Shown here in pieces: positions 5,684 through 54,045 of a stretch of 64,000 bases of DNA. The first letter of the stretch is position 1, and every line of letters begins with the position of its first letter. The position numbers and the translations under genes were made by a program. The stretch is taken from sequence record PP359696.1. One strand, written 5' to 3'. Under the pieces are notes generated by a model. That model did no database searches, was not told the origin of the DNA, and saw only the letters and a program-made list of their open reading frames with translations. This DNA comes from Escherichia phage Ge15.

Positions 5684-6145
5684 ATGACTATCAACACAGA
5701 AGTTTTTATCCGTCGAAATAAGCTCCGTCGTCACTTTGAGTCGGAGTTTCGTCAAATTAACAATGAGATTCGTGAGGCATCAAAAGCAGCAGGGGTCTCA
5801 TCGTTTCATCTAAAATATTCTCAGCATCTTCTTGATCGTGCAATTCAACGGGAGATTGATGAGACATATGTTTTTGAATTATTCCATAAAATAAAAGATC
5901 ATGTTTTAGAAGTTAATGAATTCCTGAGTATGCCTCCGCGTCCTGACATTGACGAGGATTTTATTGATGGGGTTGAATATCGTCCTGGACGTTTAGAAAT
6001 CACAGATGGAAATCTTTGGCTTGGATTTACAGTTTGTAAGCCTAATGAGAAGTTCAAAAACCCGTCACTTCAATGCAGGATGGCAATTATCAACAGTCGT
6101 CGTTTACCAGGAAAGGCTTCTAAAGCAGTAATTAAAACTCAATGA
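5684..6145 (+). CDS. regB: RegB sequence-specific endoribonuclease
   Basis: 153 aa, MTINTEVFIRRNKLRRHFESEF... as recalled for T4 RegB; own early promoter and AGGAG RBS. Confidence 0.85.
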   Translation: MTINTEVFIRRNKLRRHFESEFRQINNEIREASKAAGVSSFHLKYSQHLLDRAIQREIDETYVFELFHKIKDHVLEVNEFLSMPPRPDIDEDFIDGVEYRPGRLEITDGNLWLGFTVCKPNEKFKNPSLQCRMAIINSRRLPGKASKAVIKTQ

Positions 6146-6152
6146 GGTAAAC

Positions 6153-6698
6153 ATGAGAAAAGCACTACTCGCTGGTCTATTGGCCATTTCAATGATGGCA
6201 CATAGCTCCGAGCATACTTTCAGTAATGTCCAACTCGATAACATGCGTTACGCGTATCAATTCGGGGAACAATTTTCTAAGGATGGAAAATATAAAACAC
6301 ACAAAAATATCCACAAGAGCGGATTAGGTCATATAATGGCTGCCATTTTATGGCAAGAAAGCTCTGGCGGAGTTAATTTAAAATCTAAACCAAAGCATCA
6401 CGCCTACGGAATGTTCCAAAATTATTTGCCTACTATGCGAGCAAGAGTTAAGGAACTTGGTTATAATATGACCGATGCTGAAATAAAAAGAATGTTGAAT
6501 AAACGGTCCAATTCAGCTTCCTGGGCGTACATTGAACTTTCTTATTGGTTAAATATACATAAGGGCGATATAAGAAAAGCAATATCCTCTTATAATTCGG
6601 GATGGAATGTTAAAGCAGGTTCTAAATATGCTTCTGAAGTCCTAGAAAAGGCTAATTACCTTAAAAATAATAAACTTTTGGAAATAGTAAATGACTAA
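6153..6698 (+). CDS. Secreted protein with lytic-transglycosylase-like (SLT) motif
   Basis: N-terminal signal peptide MRKALLAGLLAISMMAHS; ILWQESSG...AYGMFQ resembles SLT catalytic region. Confidence 0.5.
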   Translation: MRKALLAGLLAISMMAHSSEHTFSNVQLDNMRYAYQFGEQFSKDGKYKTHKNIHKSGLGHIMAAILWQESSGGVNLKSKPKHHAYGMFQNYLPTMRARVKELGYNMTDAEIKRMLNKRSNSASWAYIELSYWLNIHKGDIRKAISSYNSGWNVKAGSKYASEVLEKANYLKNNKLLEIVND

Positions 6699-7032
6699 AA
6701 TTTTGGTTTTATGTATAGGATTAATTTCATTTTCTGCGTTAGCAGATACATCATATACTGAAATTAGAGAGTATGTAAACCGTACTGCAGCGGATTATTG
6801 CGGGAAAAATAAAGCATGCCAAGCTGAATTTGCGCAGAAATTAATATATGCATATAAAGACGGAGAAAGAGATAAATCAAGCAGATACAAAAATGATACA
6901 TTGTTAAAACGATATGCTAAAAAGTGGAATACCTTAGAATGTTCAGTTGCGGAGGAGAAAGATAAAGCCGCTTGTCATTCAATGGTTGACCGTTTGGTAG
7001 ATTCTTATAATCGAGGATTGAGTACTAGATGA
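6691..7032 (+). CDS. Small secreted/periplasmic protein
   Basis: Signal peptide MTKILVLCIGLISFSALA; Cys-containing mature part. Confidence 0.45.
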   Translation: MTKILVLCIGLISFSALADTSYTEIREYVNRTAADYCGKNKACQAEFAQKLIYAYKDGERDKSSRYKNDTLLKRYAKKWNTLECSVAEEKDKAACHSMVDRLVDSYNRGLSTR

Positions 7033-7508
7033 TTGTAAAATATATCAAGGGCGATATTGTCGCCCTCTTTCTTGAAGGTAATATTATTGCGCACGGGTGC
7101 AATTGTTTTCATACAATGGGCAGTGGTGTAGCTGGTCAATTAGCAAGAGCCTATCCCAAAATTTTAGAAATAGATAAGACCACAACTGAATATGGTTCGC
7201 GTGAAAAACTCGGTGATATGTCTATTGTTTTTAAACATAAACCTAATGGTTTTGGCATATGTTATAACTTGTATACGCAATACGAACCAGGTCCTAATCT
7301 TGATTATGGTGCTTTAGTAAACTGCATGATAGAATTAAATCTACAGGCAGAAACCCTTTTGTTTAAACCGGTAATTTACATTCCACGCATAGGTTGTGGT
7401 ATTGCTGGCGGCGATTGGGATAAGGTTTCTAAATTAATCGACATGTTTACTCCTGATATTGATTTAATAGTGGTGGATTATGAAAGTGCATTACCCGCAT
7501 CCGTTTGA
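7029..7508 (+). CDS. Macro-domain-like protein (putative ADP-ribose binding/processing)
   Basis: GDIVALF..NIIAHGCNCFHTMGSGVAGQLARAYP and IPRIGCGIAGG resemble macro-domain signature blocks. Confidence 0.5.
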   Translation: MIVKYIKGDIVALFLEGNIIAHGCNCFHTMGSGVAGQLARAYPKILEIDKTTTEYGSREKLGDMSIVFKHKPNGFGICYNLYTQYEPGPNLDYGALVNCMIELNLQAETLLFKPVIYIPRIGCGIAGGDWDKVSKLIDMFTPDIDLIVVDYESALPASV

Positions 7509-7692
7509 TCCTAAAAACAAAGCAGTAATTATTCGTCAATGGGAACGCATTTGCCGTACTAAATGTCCAATTAATAGTCCACATGATGTAGATAAAGACT
7601 ACATTGGAACATTCGTTGAATATACCTTTATTGATAAGAAAGGTCGTAAACAACATGTAGAAGAATATTGCTTAAAGGTTACATGGTTATGA
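7480..7692 (+). CDS. Hypothetical protein
   Basis: 70-aa ORF overlapping upstream gene end. Confidence 0.4.
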   Translation: MKVHYPHPFDPKNKAVIIRQWERICRTKCPINSPHDVDKDYIGTFVEYTFIDKKGRKQHVEEYCLKVTWL

Positions 7693-7713
7693 GCCAAACT
7701 AGTATTCTTAAAA

Positions 7714-7896
7714 ATGCCCACTGTGAAAAGTGTAAGTGGCCGGTTGTTTTTTGCTTTATGCAACGATGAAATGGCTTGTGATTTCGATTATTGGTGCTAT
7801 TGTTCTAATAAAGGATGCATCAATCATAAAGGTGAAGGATTTTATTCAGGATTTTACCCTTATCCTGATTTCGTTAAAGAAGGTAAACCAAAATGA
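7714..7896 (+). CDS. Hypothetical Cys-rich small protein
   Basis: 60 aa with CxxxxxxC...CxC...C pattern. Confidence 0.4.
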   Translation: MPTVKSVSGRLFFALCNDEMACDFDYWCYCSNKGCINHKGEGFYSGFYPYPDFVKEGKPK

Positions 7897-8069
7897 ATGA
7901 TGATTTAAAATATCAATTATTACGTGAACTTGATGTTTTGATTGAACTTTCTGCACAAAAAGGATTTATAATTGGATCGGGTCAAAAAGACCCCAACGGT
8001 CATTCAATCGTAGCGGTTATGAATCAGAAACGAGTCATTTTAAAACTTTTGGGGATTGACATACTGTGA
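7893..8069 (+). CDS. Hypothetical small protein
   Basis: 58-aa ORF not in track (below 60 aa); ATGA overlap with upstream stop; fills the gap to next gene. Confidence 0.3.
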   Translation: MNDDLKYQLLRELDVLIELSAQKGFIIGSGQKDPNGHSIVAVMNQKRVILKLLGIDIL

Positions 8070-8251
8070 GCCTAAGCAAAGAACAAAAAGATAAATTGTT
8101 TGAGCTTATCCATGAACTTCTAGATGAGCATGCAGAAGCAAACACCTTTTATGATGAATACGGCCCGCTATCTCCCGAACAGCAGGAAGAATTTGCTGAT
8201 CGGTTTGATAAGAAAGAAAATGAATTAATAGCTTATGTGAATACGCTTTAA
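8066..8251 (+). CDS. Hypothetical acidic protein
   Basis: 61 aa, GTG start overlapping upstream stop. Confidence 0.4.
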   Translation: MSLSKEQKDKLFELIHELLDEHAEANTFYDEYGPLSPEQQEEFADRFDKKENELIAYVNTL

Positions 8252-8260
8252 GAAGGTGAT

Positions 8261-8842
8261 ATGGCGAGTTTAATTTTTACTTATGCAGCAATGAATGCTG
8301 GAAAATCTGCTTCTCTTTTGACTGCTGCACATAATTATAAAGAACGTGGAATGAGTGTATTAGTTCTTAAGCCTGCTATTGATACTCGCGATTCTGTCTG
8401 TGAAGTTGTTTCTCGCATTGGAATTAAACAGGAAGCGAATATTATTACAGATGATATGGATATTTTCGAGTTCTATAAATGGGCTGAAGCACAAAAAGAT
8501 ATTCATTGCGTATTTGTAGATGAAGCTCAGTTTTTAAAAACTGAACAGGTGCACCAATTAAGCCGAATTGTTGATACATATAATGTTCCTGTTATGGCTT
8601 ATGGATTAAGGACTGATTTCGCTGGAAAATTGTTTGAAGGTTCTAAAGAACTTTTAGCGATTGCAGATAAACTTATTGAACTAAAGGCAGTTTGTCATTG
8701 CGGCAAAAAAGCGATTATGACAGCTCGATTAATGGAAGATGGAACACCAGTTAAAGAAGGTAATCAAATCTGTATTGGTGATGAAATTTATGTTTCTTTG
8801 TGCAGAAAACATTGGAATGAATTAACTAAAAAGCTTGGTTAG
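8261..8842 (+). CDS. tk: Thymidine kinase
   Basis: 193 aa; P-loop AMNAGKS and overall similarity to type II TK (E. coli Tdk-like); AAGGTG RBS. Confidence 0.93.
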   Translation: MASLIFTYAAMNAGKSASLLTAAHNYKERGMSVLVLKPAIDTRDSVCEVVSRIGIKQEANIITDDMDIFEFYKWAEAQKDIHCVFVDEAQFLKTEQVHQLSRIVDTYNVPVMAYGLRTDFAGKLFEGSKELLAIADKLIELKAVCHCGKKAIMTARLMEDGTPVKEGNQICIGDEIYVSLCRKHWNELTKKLG

Positions 8843-8851
8843 TGCAAAAGT

Positions 8852-8859
8852 TATAAATA
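8852..8859 (+). promoter_or_regulatory. T4 late promoter upstream of rI region
   Basis: Exact TATAAATA. Confidence 0.6.
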
Positions 8860-8884
8860 GGTTTATCTAACTAAAGGGGTATAT

Positions 8885-9097
8885 ATGCTACAATTAACTG
8901 AAAAGCAACTTCGCAATCTTACTGTGCTTCAATTAGATGAAATTCGTAGGGAAGTTGGAAATATCATTTCAGCTTTGCGTCGAGAAGTATCACTCAACCA
9001 ATCTCCGGCAGACTATACTAGATTGCGAAATTTTGAAAAATACCTTGATAAAGTTAAGGCCGTGCATCGGCATAAAGTAAATACAGGACAAAAATGA
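8885..9097 (+). CDS. Hypothetical protein
   Basis: 70-aa ORF with late promoter TATAAATA and GGGG RBS upstream. Confidence 0.45.
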
Positions 9098-11349: not shown

Positions 11350-11871
11350 ATGTTTATTTCAAGTGAAAGTGGTTTAATTCGTGTTGAATTTAAAAATGAC
11401 ATCTTTCTTATTCAAGGAGATGATATTATTAAAATGAGTTATGACGAAATCAAGAAAATTTGTCATGCTCTTGAAAGTCATGGAAAAGTGAACGCTGTTA
11501 TTGATATTGGCGATTTATGGGTGACACTTTATGAAGTATCCGAAGGATTTAACATTGAAGATGAAAATAACATTTTAGCTATTGATAAAAGAACTGATTT
11601 GCTTGATGTGTTAAAAGTTTATGAACAGTCAAACGGTGGAAGAAAAGCTGTATTGATTTATCAAAAACCGCATTCATGTGGAACTGCTTCAATCATTTCA
11701 AATATTGAAGGCGAAGTTGATACTTATATGTGTGTTTTAAAAGCTGGTGGTGACCGTCATCCGGATTTTATTTCTATTCGTCAAAACAATGGAGAAATTT
11801 CATTATCAAAATCAGAAGCTGAAGCTATGATTAAGTATTTAACAACCGTTACGCCTTCAATGAAAGGATAA
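11350..11871 (+). CDS. Hypothetical protein
   Basis: 173 aa, GAGG RBS. Confidence 0.5.
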   Translation: MFISSESGLIRVEFKNDIFLIQGDDIIKMSYDEIKKICHALESHGKVNAVIDIGDLWVTLYEVSEGFNIEDENNILAIDKRTDLLDVLKVYEQSNGGRKAVLIYQKPHSCGTASIISNIEGEVDTYMCVLKAGGDRHPDFISIRQNNGEISLSKSEAEAMIKYLTTVTPSMKG

Positions 11872-11873
11872 TT

Positions 11874-12335
11874 ATGATTATTAATGAAAACTCTTGGCAC
11901 TATAAATTATTCAAATTGTTTAACGATGAATGGCAACGACCTAAGACATTATGCGCATATTTTTGGTCTATTGCCATTCCTACATTTTTCGTTTCTATTT
12001 TTGGATGTGTTATACTCGTAGGGCTAACAATTATTTGTGCAGAAAGCCTACAACGTTGGCTTATTTTCGGTAGTTTATGGACTCTTCTTCCATCGGCATT
12101 TATACTTGCACTTTTGGTTGTTTTACTTATTATCGGTTCATTTGTTATTCCTGCACATTTGCGTGAAAAATATAAAGATTATAAATGGAAAAAGGATTAT
12201 GCTTTACACGTAGAAAATATTGATAGGGCGTATAAAGGTTTACCTCCTATTCAACCCAAGAAATCGGTTATCGTTGAATTTTTAAAAGCTCGTAAAGCTA
12301 AAGTATGTCCTGTTATTGAATATAAGGCTGAATGA
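11874..12335 (+). CDS. Hypothetical integral membrane protein
   Basis: 153 aa with 3 predicted TM segments. Confidence 0.5.
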   Translation: MIINENSWHYKLFKLFNDEWQRPKTLCAYFWSIAIPTFFVSIFGCVILVGLTIICAESLQRWLIFGSLWTLLPSAFILALLVVLLIIGSFVIPAHLREKYKDYKWKKDYALHVENIDRAYKGLPPIQPKKSVIVEFLKARKAKVCPVIEYKAE

Positions 12336-19179: not shown

Positions 19180-20109
19180 ATGAAAACTCGTAAACATTAT
19201 ATTGATTATTTTGACAGTCTTATTATTAAACACCGTAATTATCAGATCGGACACAGAGCAGTAATCAATAATATTCTTCGTGATTTCCTTCAATATGTTG
19301 GCCAGGAAAATCATATCTGTAAAGATACTCAAAACGCTTATTCTCATTCGTTGGGCAATTTGCTTCAATGGTTTAAACGTTCTCGTATGTTATCTTCTAC
19401 TGTAGCTCGCGATAACATTAAAAACTTTATGAAGCCGAGCTTTATTAAATCTGAGACATCTATAACTGATTTGGTTGAATTTACTATTGTTAACGATGTT
19501 AAAAAGACCCATTTGGCTGATTGGTTATCTACCATTCCTGAAACTAAATTTGCTGATAAATTTGCTTGTCAATTCAATGACCAAGTGAATATGCTTTTTA
19601 AGCATGCTCGCAAACTATTTACCGCGGGCGATGACCGTACAAATACAGTTCATGTTAAGGACTGGGTTATTGCTGATGAAGTAACACACAAGCCAGGTGG
19701 TTCATCAGTATTAATTAATATCCAGGTTCCTTATTATTACTCACGTAATCTCGGCACCATGAACTCTAGAGAAATTAATAAGCACAACAAAACTATTCGT
19801 TCGTTATCTTATAAACTCCGCATGATGTTAAAAATCATGGACGTAGTAGAAATGTATGACGAAACCGAAGATAATGGTTCAATGTTATACAGTTCACGCA
19901 TTTTAATTAAACTGAAGAACCCTAATACATATAAGACAGTTGTAAAAGAGCCTAAAGTAGAAAAGATTGATAACTTGAGCGAAGAACGTGAATACCTCAA
20001 ATCTCGACTAGTTGAAGTTGAAGCTCAGATTGCCGAACACACTAAATTGTTAAAAGCTCTTAATGCAAAAGCAAATGGTTTACGTAATGCTATTGAGGTA
20101 TTGAAATGA
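19180..20109 (+). CDS. Hypothetical protein, member of coiled-coil-tailed paralog array
   Basis: 309 aa, N-terminus MKTRKHYIDYF, C-terminal coiled coil ending AIEVLK. Confidence 0.5.
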   Translation: MKTRKHYIDYFDSLIIKHRNYQIGHRAVINNILRDFLQYVGQENHICKDTQNAYSHSLGNLLQWFKRSRMLSSTVARDNIKNFMKPSFIKSETSITDLVEFTIVNDVKKTHLADWLSTIPETKFADKFACQFNDQVNMLFKHARKLFTAGDDRTNTVHVKDWVIADEVTHKPGGSSVLINIQVPYYYSRNLGTMNSREINKHNKTIRSLSYKLRMMLKIMDVVEMYDETEDNGSMLYSSRILIKLKNPNTYKTVVKEPKVEKIDNLSEEREYLKSRLVEVEAQIAEHTKLLKALNAKANGLRNAIEVLK

Positions 20110-46714: not shown

Positions 46715-47008
46715 ATGAAAAAATTTATCTTTGCTACAATTTTTGCTTTAGCTTCTTGTGCTGCTCAGCCTGCTATGGCAGGTTATGATAAAGATTTGTG
46801 CGAATGGTCTATGACTGCTGATCAGACTGAGGTTGAAACTCAAATTGAAGCGGATATTATGAATATTGTTGAGCGCGATCGTCCTGAAATGAAAGCTGAA
46901 GTGCAAAAACAGCTTAAGTCTGGTGGTGTAATGCAGTATAATTATGTTCTGTATTGCGATAAAAACTTTAATAACAAAAATATCATCGCTGAAGTGGTAG
47001 GTGAATAA
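46715..47008 (+). CDS. sp: Spackle-like periplasmic protein (putative)
   Basis: 97 aa with cleavable signal peptide MKKFIFATIFALASCAAQPAMA; size/position match T4 sp (61.3); own early promoter. Confidence 0.55.
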   Translation: MKKFIFATIFALASCAAQPAMAGYDKDLCEWSMTADQTEVETQIEADIMNIVERDRPEMKAEVQKQLKSGGVMQYNYVLYCDKNFNNKNIIAEVVGE

Positions 47009-47634
47009 TGCTTTATCAAATGCACAAGTGCAAAGATACATACAAATATAAAGGTGCCCAGTGTTATATCATTAATCGTGAAAACGCGGGTCCAGGTCAT
47101 TCGCATCAATCACGGTTTGTATTCGTTAAAAACAATGAAATTATAGCAGTTGCTAATTACATGCTTGTGACTAATGATGTTAATCCGGTGCCTTTTACAT
47201 ATTATAATCTAATGGATTTGGCGTACGATTATAATTGGTTTAATCATGACACTTTGGCTCATATCGAAGGCGTAGGATTTGACATCTCTTATTCTAGTTA
47301 CTCGTTGTGTCCTATGAGCCGAGCTCATAAAGAGCCTGAATATTTTTCATTTCGTCGGCGTGTAGACTTTAAACGCAGTACAGAGTATGTCGGTGGAATA
47401 TTTGTTAAAGATAATCGAATTACTCGCATTATTTATCCTTTGGGCTGTGGTCAAAAAGATATTGATGTTGATTTAGACTTTACTGAAAACATCATTAATC
47501 ATATTGCTTCTGTGTATTTTGATATTGATCACAAAATTGTGATATGTGGATATGAATTACCATCAGAAAAACAGTCTAAAGTAAATGTTTCTATTGATGA
47601 CCAAATTTTTAATGCTTTTATGAATAAAGGTTAA
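47008..47634 (+). CDS. Hypothetical protein (61.2 position)
   Basis: 208 aa; C-terminal tail SIDDQIFNAFMNKG shared with next ORF. Confidence 0.5.
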   Translation: MLYQMHKCKDTYKYKGAQCYIINRENAGPGHSHQSRFVFVKNNEIIAVANYMLVTNDVNPVPFTYYNLMDLAYDYNWFNHDTLAHIEGVGFDISYSSYSLCPMSRAHKEPEYFSFRRRVDFKRSTEYVGGIFVKDNRITRIIYPLGCGQKDIDVDLDFTENIINHIASVYFDIDHKIVICGYELPSEKQSKVNVSIDDQIFNAFMNKG

Positions 47635-47635
47635 T

Positions 47636-47992
47636 ATGTATAGTTCTGAATTTTCATATTTAAAAATGGAAAAAATTTCATACGATTTTATAGATGAAAA
47701 GGTTTATTACAGTTTCCATGAACCACGTTTTAATAGTGAGGTTGGGTTTATTGTAGTAAAAGACAATTTCATTTTAAAGATATATTCAGCATTAAAGGAT
47801 TTTCACTACGAAAATATTAACCTAAAATTTGATAAAGAAAACGTTCGTAATTGTGCAGTAACAATTACAGGAAATAAAGGCACATGTGTTATGCTATCTG
47901 ATGAAATTAATGATTTGCTAAATGATGCCGAAAAGGTTGCTATTCCATCTATTGATGACCAAATTTTTAATGCTTTTATGAATAGAGGTTAA
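47636..47992 (+). CDS. Hypothetical protein (61.1 position)
   Basis: 118 aa; C-terminal tail SIDDQIFNAFMNRG duplicated from upstream ORF. Confidence 0.5.
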   Translation: MYSSEFSYLKMEKISYDFIDEKVYYSFHEPRFNSEVGFIVVKDNFILKIYSALKDFHYENINLKFDKENVRNCAVTITGNKGTCVMLSDEINDLLNDAEKVAIPSIDDQIFNAFMNRG

Positions 47993-49457: not shown

Positions 49458-49976
49458 ATGGCATACTTTAATGAATGTTCACAACTGATCGAAGGCGCTG
49501 ATAAAGCTCAAAATGAATACTGGGATATTCTCGGTGATGAAAAAGACCCACTACAGGTTATGCTTGATATGCAGAAATCTTTGCAGGTTCGTTTAGCTAA
49601 AGATAAACCTGAATATAACCGTCATCCTGATGATTTGGCTACTGCAGGCGAAGTTGTTGATTGGCTGCGTAATCAAAAAGATTATATTGACGATGAATTC
49701 CGTGAACTTCTGACTTCTCTTGGCGGCATGAGCAATGGTGAAAAAGATGCATCTGCTGTATGGAAGCCTTGGAAAGCTCAACATGGTGAACGCCGTGAAA
49801 CTCTAATTACTGATTTGTCTCCGCAAGATCAGTTGGAAATTAAATTCGAAATGATTGATATTCTTCATTTCGTTCTGAACATGTTCCAAGGTCTTGGTCT
49901 TACGGCTGAAGAAATCTTTAAACTTTATTATCTGAAAAATGCTGAAAACTTCGCTCGTCAAGACCGAGGTTATTGA
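49458..49976 (+). CDS. 56: dCTPase/dUTPase gp56 (dCTP pyrophosphatase)
   Basis: 172 aa from ATG 49458; MotA-box middle promoter upstream; MazG-like all-alpha NTP pyrophosphatase features; position after 61. Confidence 0.85.
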   Translation: MAYFNECSQLIEGADKAQNEYWDILGDEKDPLQVMLDMQKSLQVRLAKDKPEYNRHPDDLATAGEVVDWLRNQKDYIDDEFRELLTSLGGMSNGEKDASAVWKPWKAQHGERRETLITDLSPQDQLEIKFEMIDILHFVLNMFQGLGLTAEEIFKLYYLKNAENFARQDRGY

Positions 49977-50385: not shown

Positions 50386-50622
50386 ATGGGTGGTTTCGTT
50401 AACATCAAGACCTTTACTCATCCAGCAGGTGAAGGCAAAGAAGTTAAAGGTATGGAAGTTTCTGTAGCATTTGATGTATATTCAAATGAACACCGTATTG
50501 CAGATTCTCATTATCAAATCTTTCCGTCAGAAAAAGCAGCTTATTCTGATGTAGTTTCCGATGCAGCAACTTGGAAAACTAAGAATGCTGCAATGTTTAC
50601 ACCTACAGAAATAGGTGGTTAA
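50386..50622 (+). CDS. soc: Small outer capsid protein Soc
   Basis: 78 aa; VNIKTF...SVAF...FPSEKAAYS matches T4 Soc as recalled; TATAAATA late promoter and AAAGGAG RBS; terminator downstream. Confidence 0.85.
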   Translation: MGGFVNIKTFTHPAGEGKEVKGMEVSVAFDVYSNEHRIADSHYQIFPSEKAAYSDVVSDAATWKTKNAAMFTPTEIGG

Positions 50623-52798: not shown

Positions 52799-52822
52799 CT
52801 TCTGAAGTATATGGAGGCTATC

Positions 52823-53446
52823 ATGATTATTAATCTTGCAGATGTTGAACAGTTATCTATAAAAGCTGAAAGCGTCGATTTTCAATATGATATGTATAAA
52901 AAGGTCTGTGAAAAATTTACGGACTTTGAACAGTCAGTTCTTTGGCAATGTATGGAAGCCAAAAAGAATGAAGCTCTTCATCGGCAGTTGAATAAAATCG
53001 TTAAAAATCATTTAACTAAATCACCTTATCAGCTATATCGTGGTATATCAAAATCGACAAAAGAACTTATTAAAGATTTACAAGTTGGAGAAGTGTTTTC
53101 AACGAACAGGGTAGATTCATTTACTACTAGTTTGCATACAGCATGCGGTTTTTCTTATGTTGAATATTCCACTGAAATAATATTTCGCTTAAAAACTGAT
53201 AAAGCTTTTAATTATTCTGACCATATCAGCGATATTATACTTTCTTCTCCTAATACTGAGTTTAAGTATACATATGAAGATACTGATGGATTAGATTCAG
53301 AACGTACTGATAACTTAATGATGATTGTACGTGAACAAGAATGGATGATTCCAATTGGAAAGTATAAAATAACTTCTATTTCAAAAGAAAAATTACACGA
53401 TTCGTTTGGAACATTTAAAGTGTATGATATTGAGGTAGTTGAATGA
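52823..53446 (+). CDS. modB: ADP-ribosyltransferase ModB (putative)
   Basis: 207 aa from ATG 52823; R-S-ExE type ART motifs (YRGIS, FTTS, EQEWMIP); adjacent paralog; position before srd/dda. Confidence 0.6.
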   Translation: MIINLADVEQLSIKAESVDFQYDMYKKVCEKFTDFEQSVLWQCMEAKKNEALHRQLNKIVKNHLTKSPYQLYRGISKSTKELIKDLQVGEVFSTNRVDSFTTSLHTACGFSYVEYSTEIIFRLKTDKAFNYSDHISDIILSSPNTEFKYTYEDTDGLDSERTDNLMMIVREQEWMIPIGKYKITSISKEKLHDSFGTFKVYDIEVVE

Positions 53447-54045
53447 AATATTCAGCAATGCAATTAAAAGATTTTAAAATCAAATCAATGGATGCATCGG
53501 TGCGTGCTTCTATTCGTGAAGAATTACTTTCTGAAGGATTTAATTTATCCGAAATTGAACTTTTAATTCATTGTATTACTAATAAACCAGACGATCATTC
53601 TTGGTTAAATGAAATAATCAAATCTCGTTTGGTTCCAAACGATAAACCTCTTTGGAGAGGTGTTCCAGTTGAGACTAAGCAGGTGTTAAATCAAGGAATT
53701 GATATTATTACATTTGATAAAGTAGTATCAGCTTCATATGATAAAAATATAGCTCTACATTTTGCTTCTGGATTAGAATACAACACACAAGTTATTTTTG
53801 AATTCAAAGCTCCTATGGTGTTTAATTTCCAGGAGTATGCTATAAAAGCTCTACGCTGTAAAGAATATAGTCCAAGTTTTAAGTTTCCAGATAGCCATCG
53901 TTATCGCAATATGGAATTAGTTTCAGATGAACAAGAAGTAATGATACCAGCTGGAAGTGTATTTAAAATTGCAGATAGATATGAGTACAAAAAGTATTCA
54001 ACATACACTATCTATACTCTTGATTTTGAAGGATTTAATCTATAA
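53443..54045 (+). CDS. modA: ADP-ribosyltransferase ModA (putative)
   Basis: 200 aa; ART motifs (LWRGV, SASY, EQEVMIP). Confidence 0.6.
   Translation: MKYSAMQLKDFKIKSMDASVRASIREELLSEGFNLSEIELLIHCITNKPDDHSWLNEIIKSRLVPNDKPLWRGVPVETKQVLNQGIDIITFDKVVSASYDKNIALHFASGLEYNTQVIFEFKAPMVFNFQEYAIKALRCKEYSPSFKFPDSHRYRNMELVSDEQEVMIPAGSVFKIADRYEYKKYSTYTIYTLDFEGFNL

Follow-up and report, generated by a model that had tools for sequence, protein, structure and literature searches.

An ortholog of the T4 anti-DarT factor Tk.4/AdfM in Escherichia phage Ge15: a macro domain with a putative glutamine-type active site, encoded by a divergent allele

DNA ADP-ribosylation by DarT is a widespread bacterial defence against phages. 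Phage T4 remains resistant to the DarTG2 system even without adfA (61.2) and adfN (30.3, a NADAR enzyme), and a further anti-DarTG2 factor had therefore been predicted. A T4 transposon library on DarTG2-expressing E. coli then returned tk.4 as the single significant gene required, and a clean tk.4 knock-out made T4 sensitive to DarTG2 (bioRxiv 10.1101/2025.11.20.689424, November 2025). The authors of this preprint renamed the gene adfM and proposed, by inference, that its product removes ADP-ribose from DNA; the evidence is genetic and concerns the T4 allele only. The same name, AdfM, was given independently to gp104 of phage PhiKZ, which strips DarT2 marks from DNA in vitro (Cell Reports 2026, PMC13309987).

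[quoted passage not shown] In this enzyme a glutamine replaces the lysine of DarG and TARG1, and the Q85A substitution abolishes activity. Asn27, His24 and Gly128 also matter, with activity lost on mutation of Gln85, Asn27 or Gly128 (PMC9411070). The same study links an extended mobile loop to high activity on DNA and to DNA clamping.

The DNA analysed here, referred to as the window, is a stretch of 64,000 nucleotides from Escherichia phage Ge15 (PP359696.1). It comes from a Tequatrovirus: over positions 6000..9000 it shares 99.8% identity with Escherichia phage AdolfPortmann (Bas44), a member of that genus, and the gene order regB, vs.1, vs, tk.4, tk.3 ... tk, rI.1, rI agrees with the T4 map. 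An earlier note, made from the sequence alone, had described a 159-aa macro-domain-like ORF at 7029-7508. These coordinates are exact, running from an ATG start to a TGA stop on the plus strand, and both sequence blocks that the note quoted were found: GDIVALF...NIIAHGCNCFHTMGSGVAGQLARAYP spans residues 8-43 of the protein and IPRIGCGIAGG residues 118-128. The gene and its immediate surroundings comprise the following features:

7029..7508, plus strand: tk.4/adfM ortholog, 159 aa, with a single macro domain; the end includes the TGA stop
7029..7032, plus strand: ATGA overlap of the vs stop and the tk.4 start (vs ORF 6691..7032, tk.4 ORF from 7029)
7048..7066, plus strand: G+C-rich hairpin with the core GGGCGA-TATTG-TCGCCC, at codons 7-13 of tk.4 and followed by a T-rich run; a terminator-like match
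7480..7692, plus strand: downstream gene tk.3 (DUF7202), matching Pfam DUF7202 at 8e-39 and 95.7% identical to T4 tk.3

The 4-nt overlap between vs and tk.4 occurs likewise in T4, and it suggests that the two genes may be translationally coupled. The hairpin core at 7048..7066 is also identical in T4, and phage DalCa carries a rho-independent terminator annotation at the equivalent site. In the window the hairpin is present in the minimum-free-energy fold of the surrounding 76-nt stretch (total -18 kcal/mol, z -1.95). The protein in the tk.4 slot is 100% identical to QXV75503 of Bas44, which is annotated as a "hypothetical protein".

The ORF product is a genuine macro domain. It matches Pfam Macro (PF01661) at 34.4 bits (E 2.4e-8), against a gathering score of 22 and over profile positions 2-117 of 118, and it matches PHROG 335 ("phosphatase") at 2.5e-71. 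By itself, the sequence also matches the solved macro domains of BT1257, yeast Poa1p, SCO6735, DarG and TARG1. A profile of the family, from an alignment of 55 homologs taken from a search of 5.8 billion proteins, matches solved macro domains with E values of 5e-21 to 1e-10. The AlphaFold2 model made with this alignment has a mean pLDDT of 94.8 and a pTM of 0.89, and its strands and helices alternate as in the macro fold. Foldseek against the PDB returned TARG1, BT1257, Poa1p and the macro domains of M. tuberculosis and T. aquaticus DarG at probability 1.00 and TM 0.7-0.84, with coronavirus and alphavirus macro domains lower in the list. The ADP-ribose-binding elements (N25, G31/G33, G122/G124/G127/G128) show conservation of 90% or more, up to invariance, and align with those of the solved enzymes. 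The earlier note had proposed the Pfam search and the structure prediction itself, and had named a missing profile match together with an unrelated fold as the contrary outcome. Its macro-domain claim therefore stands, since the profile is covered almost completely and Pfam, AlphaFold2 and Foldseek all agree. A search with the family profile found no second macro domain in the 64-kb window.

Compared with T4 Tk.4 (NP_049723), the window protein shows 58% identity, with 155 of 155 residues aligned and no gaps (E 5e-70). Both genes occupy the slot between vs and tk.3, fall in the same length class and encode a lone macro domain. The first 48 residues of the two proteins are nearly identical, and both carry glutamine at the position of the catalytic lysine. 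Yet 42% of the residues differ, although the flanking genes are 96-100% identical. In the second loop the window allele has the family consensus IGCGIAGGDW, whereas T4 Tk.4 has the atypical IGAGIGKGNW. The window allele also ends with four extra C-terminal residues, and the start of tk.3 overlaps its last 29 nt. Judged by sequence and gene position, the window gene is the ortholog of T4 tk.4/adfM (anti-DarT factor macrodomain), and the protein can be called a hydrolase of the Tk.4 macro family with very high confidence. The suggestion in the earlier note that such a protein could reverse host ADP-ribosylating toxins, for which it had named a DarT test, matches the knock-out of the T4 ortholog (bioRxiv 10.1101/2025.11.20.689424). 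The literature on T4 thus already contains the DarT idea, as well as the gene with its class of fold and its probable role. What is added here, namely the glutamine-type site, the non-DarG ancestry and the cassette-like divergence, amounts to modest refinements of annotation.

The putative active site is spread over three segments:

7092..7127, plus strand: first ADP-ribose-binding block, H22-G-C-N25-C-F-H-T-M-G31-S-G33, including the first glycine-rich loop
7266..7280, plus strand: N80-L-Y-T-Q84, with Gln84 at the catalytic-lysine position
7383..7418, plus strand: loop P119-R-I-G-C-G-I-A-G-G-D-W130, named the PB-loop in the SCO6735 paper

Alignments with SCO6735, BT1257 and TARG1 place H22 at SCO6735 His24, and N25 at SCO6735 Asn27 and PhiKZ AdfM N23; mutagenesis data are available for these first-block equivalents (PMC9411070, PMC13309987). 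In the profile and MAFFT alignments, Gln84 shares a column with the catalytic Lys84 of TARG1, K80 of DarG, the essential Gln85 of SCO6735 and the Gln of "IGQ" in BT1257. An hhalign comparison with PhiKZ AdfM sets Gln84 opposite the Lys of "FPTK", the DarG K80 motif. G124 corresponds to SCO6735 Gly128, and A126 lies at the site of the catalytic Asp125 of TARG1; the SCO6735 numbering takes into account that the 5E3B chain is offset by a 20-residue tag. Conservation follows all three segments. In the 55-sequence family alignment, H22, G23, N25, C26 and G33 of the first block, N80, Y82 and Q84 of the second, and P119, G122, G124 and W130 of the third are invariant, while A126, G127 and G128 each reach 90% conservation or more. 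Of 80 bacterial relatives, 77 retain the Y-[TS]-Q motif. The active site is thus of the SCO6735/BT1257 type, with Gln84 for the catalytic lysine and Ala126 for the TARG1 aspartate. The loop that follows the glutamine is shorter in the Tk.4 family than in these enzymes, by 6 residues relative to BT1257 and by 5 relative to SCO6735 (MAFFT).

SCO6735 (PDB 5E3B) and BT1257 from Bacteroides (2FG1/2AFC) resemble the window protein in standing alone and in having glutamine for the catalytic lysine. All three proteins have the His/Asn block and a loop of the form PRIGCG-x-AGG-x-W, and SCO6735 and BT1257 are the best matches of the family profile and the sister group of the Tk.4 family in the tree. BT1257 is about 27% identical to the window protein. 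Both are cellular proteins, whereas the window protein belongs to a phage and lacks their mobile loop. Human TARG1/OARD1 (PDB 4J5R/4J5S) is the best Foldseek match (E 3e-10, TM 0.75/0.84). It shares the AH-C and PRIGCG motifs at about 20% identity, but it works with a Lys84/Asp125 dyad where the window protein has Gln84 and Ala126. Poa1p, the yeast ADP-ribose-1''-phosphate phosphatase (PDB 6LFQ-6LFU), has the same fold and an N-terminal similarity of the form H-x-C-N-C ... G-G-G-I-A-x-Q-L-A, and is the origin of the "phosphatase" annotation. Pairwise alignment sets H22 against H23 and T29 against S30, the catalytic residues of Poa1p, and leaves the central region, including Gln84, unaligned. 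The Tk.4 family profile scores BT1257 at 78 bits, TARG1 and SCO6735 at 65, Poa1p at 60, and two DarG proteins at 48 and 44.

DarG (PDB 5M3I, 5M31) and PhiKZ gp104 have the fold and class of the window protein in common, and their likely substrate (ADP-ribosyl-thymidine in single-stranded DNA) and counter-DarT2 role would be alike. The differences are nevertheless consistent. DarG and PhiKZ AdfM carry the FPTK lysine and a PPLG-x-GNGGL loop, where the window protein has YTQ and PRIGCGIAGG. DarG has a C-terminal DarT-binding domain and an adjacent darT gene, and the window protein has neither: no DarT2-like ORF was found in the window, and the neighbours of tk.4 are vs and tk.3. With the NCBIfam DarG equivalog (NF048014), whose cut-off is 250 bits, the window protein reaches 28 bits and aligns only to positions 2-138 of 338. 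The PADLOC DarG model gives 27.9 bits for the window protein and 36 bits for T4 Tk.4, compared with 132.9 bits for PhiKZ AdfM, which in the PDB matches DarG structures only. A rough neighbour-joining tree of 14 sequences with 500 bootstraps was built from BLOSUM score distances, because the sequences are saturated and Kimura distances are invalid. It recovers DarG with PhiKZ AdfM, the Tk.4 family, and BT1257 with SCO6735 in 500 of 500 bootstraps each, and the split that unites the Tk.4 family with BT1257/SCO6735 in 416 of 500. Origin as a captured DarG was rejected, since the NCBIfam and PADLOC scores, the alignment of catalytic residues and the tree all put the protein outside the DarG clade. 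Together with the missing DarT linkage, these results thus point to a stand-alone, glutamine-type family and not to a recently captured DarG.

Divergence from T4 is concentrated in the gene itself and is sharply bounded:

7088..7494, plus strand: divergent allele cassette, 42-77% nucleotide identity to T4 per 60-nt block (MAFFT pairwise, sliding)
up to 7027: about 100% identity to T4
7028-7087: 90% identity to T4
7088-7147: 77% identity to T4
7148-7494: 42-70% identity to T4
7495-7554: 85% identity to T4
from about 7555: above 95% identity to T4

At the protein level, identity to T4 is 100% for vs.1, 97% for vs, 58% for tk.4, 96% for tk.3 and 99.5% for tk. The value for tk.4 is the third lowest among the 96 window ORFs with a T4 counterpart (median 98%), in a comparison over the T4 9-64 kb interval in which a paralogous match accounts for one of the two values below it. 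Such a pattern is compatible with allele exchange, which may have taken place at a counter-defence locus.

The macro family is common well beyond the T4-like phages of enterobacteria. A tblastn search found it in 2,768 phage records, including Pseudomonas (184), Vibrio (139), Acinetobacter (93) and Aeromonas (86). About 320 phage records hold an allele of the window type (at least 90% identity), among them JS98, where the copy is annotated as tk.4. A scan of 185,579 bacterial genomes confirmed, among the candidates examined, at least 504 chromosomal relatives with 34-43% identity, and 80 of these loci were fetched. The 141 genes that immediately flank the 80 relatives contain 144 Pfam families, each found at most 7 times. 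DarT was not among the 25 most frequent Pfam families beside them, and Pfam and PADLOC showed no recurrent partner gene. A phmmer search with P. aeruginosa DarT2, a single query of limited reach, gave no match within 3 kb of the 80 relatives. These 80 relatives show no link to DarT, so the ancestral substrate of the family may be something else. Phage T5 serves as the DarTG2-sensitive control in the preprint (bioRxiv 10.1101/2025.11.20.689424), and no member of the Tk.4 macro family was found in its 1-112 kb; what remains of the genome duplicates the left terminal repeat. This is a weak consistency check because it concerns one phage only. T5.105, whose annotation as Sir2-like is mistaken, is a HAD domain and no macro domain.

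These comparisons suggest that the tk.4 product is most likely an ADP-ribosyl glycohydrolase of the ALC1-like (TARG1/DarG/SCO6735) class. In the proposed mechanism, host DarT2 puts ADP-ribose on thymidines of single-stranded phage DNA and so stalls replication. The phage macro protein would then bind the ADP-ribose in a pocket made by H22, N25 and the two glycine-rich loops and cut the thymine-ribose bond, leaving DNA that can be replicated again. By removing ADP-ribose from phage DNA, Tk.4 would act as an orphan antitoxin, with no toxin to pair with. Given Gln84 and Ala126, lysine-based catalysis is improbable, and the chemistry would probably follow the proposal for SCO6735, in which the substrate is positioned and a water is activated.

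The feasibility of a glutamine-type enzyme is favoured by the activity of SCO6735 on the DarT product and by the invariance of H22, N25, Q84 and G124 in the Tk.4 family. The in vitro activity of PhiKZ gp104, a phage macrodomain of the DarG type, also speaks for a DarT2 role. Counted against such a role are the 42% of residues at which the window allele departs from T4 Tk.4, the DarG scores far below the cut-offs, the lack of a catalytic lysine, a DarT-binding domain and the mobile loop, and the bacterial relatives with no link to DarT. [quoted passage not shown] Its protection against DarTG2 by this route is rated as probable, a step short of firm, because the case rests on orthology and on the genetics of the preprint.

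The earlier note had also reported ModA/ModB-like genes at 52823..54045, and both are present:

52823..53446: ModB, 95% identical to T4 ModB; PHROG 832
53443..54045: ModA, 97% identical to T4 ModA; PHROG 832

Both are identified by PHROG 832 and by their identity to T4, a Pfam search of the two having given no match. They lie about 45 kb from tk.4. ModA/ModB-like genes occur in 937 phage records, all of them enterobacterial T4-like (tblastn), against the 2,768 of the macro family, which rules out an obligatory coupling of the two. Their presence together in the window says little, because the macro family is far more widely spread.

Several other roles have to be weighed against DNA repair of DarT2 damage. 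As a metabolic clean-up enzyme, the protein would be an ADP-ribose-1''-phosphate phosphatase or an O-acetyl-ADP-ribose deacetylase, with DarT2 protection incidental, or absent in the window allele. The label phosphatase is indeed borne by PHROG 335, and the T4 Tk.4 annotation reads "phosphatase; contains A1pp phosphatase motif". In sequence and fold, Poa1p belongs to the closest matches (6lfu, E 2e-9), with an H-S-C-N-C that resembles H-G-C-N-C, and NAPRTase, an NAD-salvage gene, lies near 4 of the 80 bacterial relatives. However, no evidence ties the phage protein to a phosphatase reaction, the family profile ranks BT1257 (78 bits) and SCO6735 (65) above Poa1p (60), and the phenotype of the T4 tk.4 knock-out is DarTG2-specific. 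ADP-ribose-1''-phosphate itself arises from Tpt1-type tRNA splicing, which to our knowledge has no role in T4 infection. A purely metabolic function is accordingly considered unlikely. The protein could also erase or tune the ADP-ribosylation of proteins by the phage's own Alt, ModA and ModB, as the earlier note had suggested. The presence of ModB and ModA in the same window speaks for this, but the chemistry does not fit well. ARH/DraG-type hydrolases are the enzymes that undo ADP-ribose linked to arginine, whereas the TARG1/DarG/SCO6735 macro class acts on Glu/Asp esters and on thymidine; we know of no report of arginine-linked ADP-ribose as a substrate of this class. Arginine is the target of Alt and ModA, both R-S-E transferases, as at R265 of RNA polymerase alpha (PMC8120803). 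SCO6735 and TARG1 do hydrolyse protein-linked ADP-ribose as well (PMC9411070). On plain E. coli K-12, adfN/adfM-type anti-defence genes are classed as non-essential, outright for adfN and implicitly for tk.4 (bioRxiv 10.1101/2025.11.20.689424). With the arginine linkage, the unlike phage distributions and the distance between the genes, the data lend no support to tuning of the phage's own modifications, which we regard as highly improbable.

Protection might instead be non-catalytic. The protein could attach to DarT2, or to a different ADP-ribosyltransferase toxin, and block it, or it could sequester a signal derived from ADP-ribose; in that case the allele cassette would mirror the fit to different toxin variants. 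In vitro, SCO6735, DarG and TARG1 still inhibit DarT through interaction when catalytically dead, SCO6735 the most strongly (PMC9411070), and the phage factors AdfA and AdfB work by DarT binding. The exceptional divergence of tk.4 between near-identical phages is also what an arms-race surface would show. Yet neither phage nor bacterial members vary at the positions that SCO6735 needs for catalysis, a sign that enzyme activity is under selection. The two modes of action, binding and catalysis, do not exclude each other. Non-catalytic action as the whole explanation is improbable, and enzymatic DNA de-ADP-ribosylation remains the preferred reading.

A broader reading that joins these observations is put forward only tentatively. 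T4-type AdfM may represent a large, stand-alone, glutamine-type macro family of bacteria and phages, not a captured DarG, that acquired its anti-DarT2 duty independently of PhiKZ AdfM. The sharply bounded, divergent tk.4 alleles of near-identical T-even phages could then be specificity variants, each suited to its own ADP-ribosylating toxin or substrate (DNA, RNA or protein), and their products may couple hydrolysis to direct inhibition of the toxin. The name AdfM now covers two unrelated macro sub-types, a Lys-type that is DarG-like and a Gln-type that is SCO6735-like, and this distinction matters for both annotation and mechanism. Knowing which phages carry working erasers helps to predict host range, for instance when T-even phages are chosen for therapy, and the anti-DarTG2 factor of T4 emerges as conserved yet highly variable among Tequatroviruses.

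The tk.4 cassette, formed by the macro domain gene, is adjoined by a second variable patch at 7693..8260. This gap between tk.3 and tk corresponds to the tk.2/tk.1 interval and, like tk.4, is replaced relative to T4. The tk.2 genes of the window and T4 are 52% identical, and no match to T4 tk.1 is detectable. The features discussed here are as follows:

7048..7066, strong G+C-rich hairpin within the tk.4 coding sequence, GGGCGATATTGTCGCCC
7714..7896, small ORF in the tk.2/tk.1 interval, differing from T4 content
7893..8069, small ORF in the same interval, also differing from T4 content
11350..12335, two ORFs of 173 and 153 aa
42279..43121, ORF of 280 aa, just 5' of uvsX
47008..47634, homolog of the anti-DarT1 factor AdfA (gp61.2), 96.6% identical to T4
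47636..47992, extra 118-aa ORF between 61.2 and 61.1, directly 3' of 61.2
52811..54045, ADP-ribosyltransferase ORFs, ModB then ModA in window orientation

Two other genes diverge unusually strongly from T4, against a background that is otherwise 98% identical: soc (50386..50622) at 46% identity and nrdC.3 (19180..20109) at 60%. For dUTPase/gp56 (49458..49976) the identity is 74%. For the ORFs of 280, 173 and 153 aa, comparison with the 9-64 kb interval of T4 shows no counterpart; near uvsX, segA and beta-gt occupy the place of the 280-aa ORF in T4.

The AdfA homolog has a local sequence, TENIINHIASVY, that is identical in T4. The adjacent 118-aa ORF is a partial paralog of gp61.2 (35% identity), and T4 lacks a counterpart at this position. 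The longest ModB ORF begins at 52811, while the start equivalent to that of T4 lies at 52823, in agreement with the start given in the earlier note.

Bacterial Tk.4-like macro genes, surveyed at 80 loci, have mixed neighbours, but a few families repeat. A class I aminoacyl-tRNA synthetase adjoins the macro gene in seven loci, while NAPRTase/NAMPT NAD-salvage genes, RNA polymerase beta' and AbiLi/AAA_21-type ATPases each lie nearby in four. In T4-type phages, vs, encoding a valyl-tRNA synthetase modifier, lies 5' of tk.4. This parallel between phage and bacterial macro genes is probably coincidental. In the phage T5 stretch, RefSeq names the product of T5.105 (L006 7588..8094) "Sir2 (NAD-dependent deacetylase)", but Pfam finds a HAD_SAK_2 domain in it (E 4e-20). 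The name looks wrong; the true Sir2 of T5 is T5.102, close to T5.105.

The hairpin lies 20 nt into the tk.4 reading frame, and a T-rich run comes after it. Its core is the same in T4, with no differences, and the equivalent site in phage DalCa is annotated as a rho-independent terminator. This hairpin could attenuate transcription or translation into tk.4.
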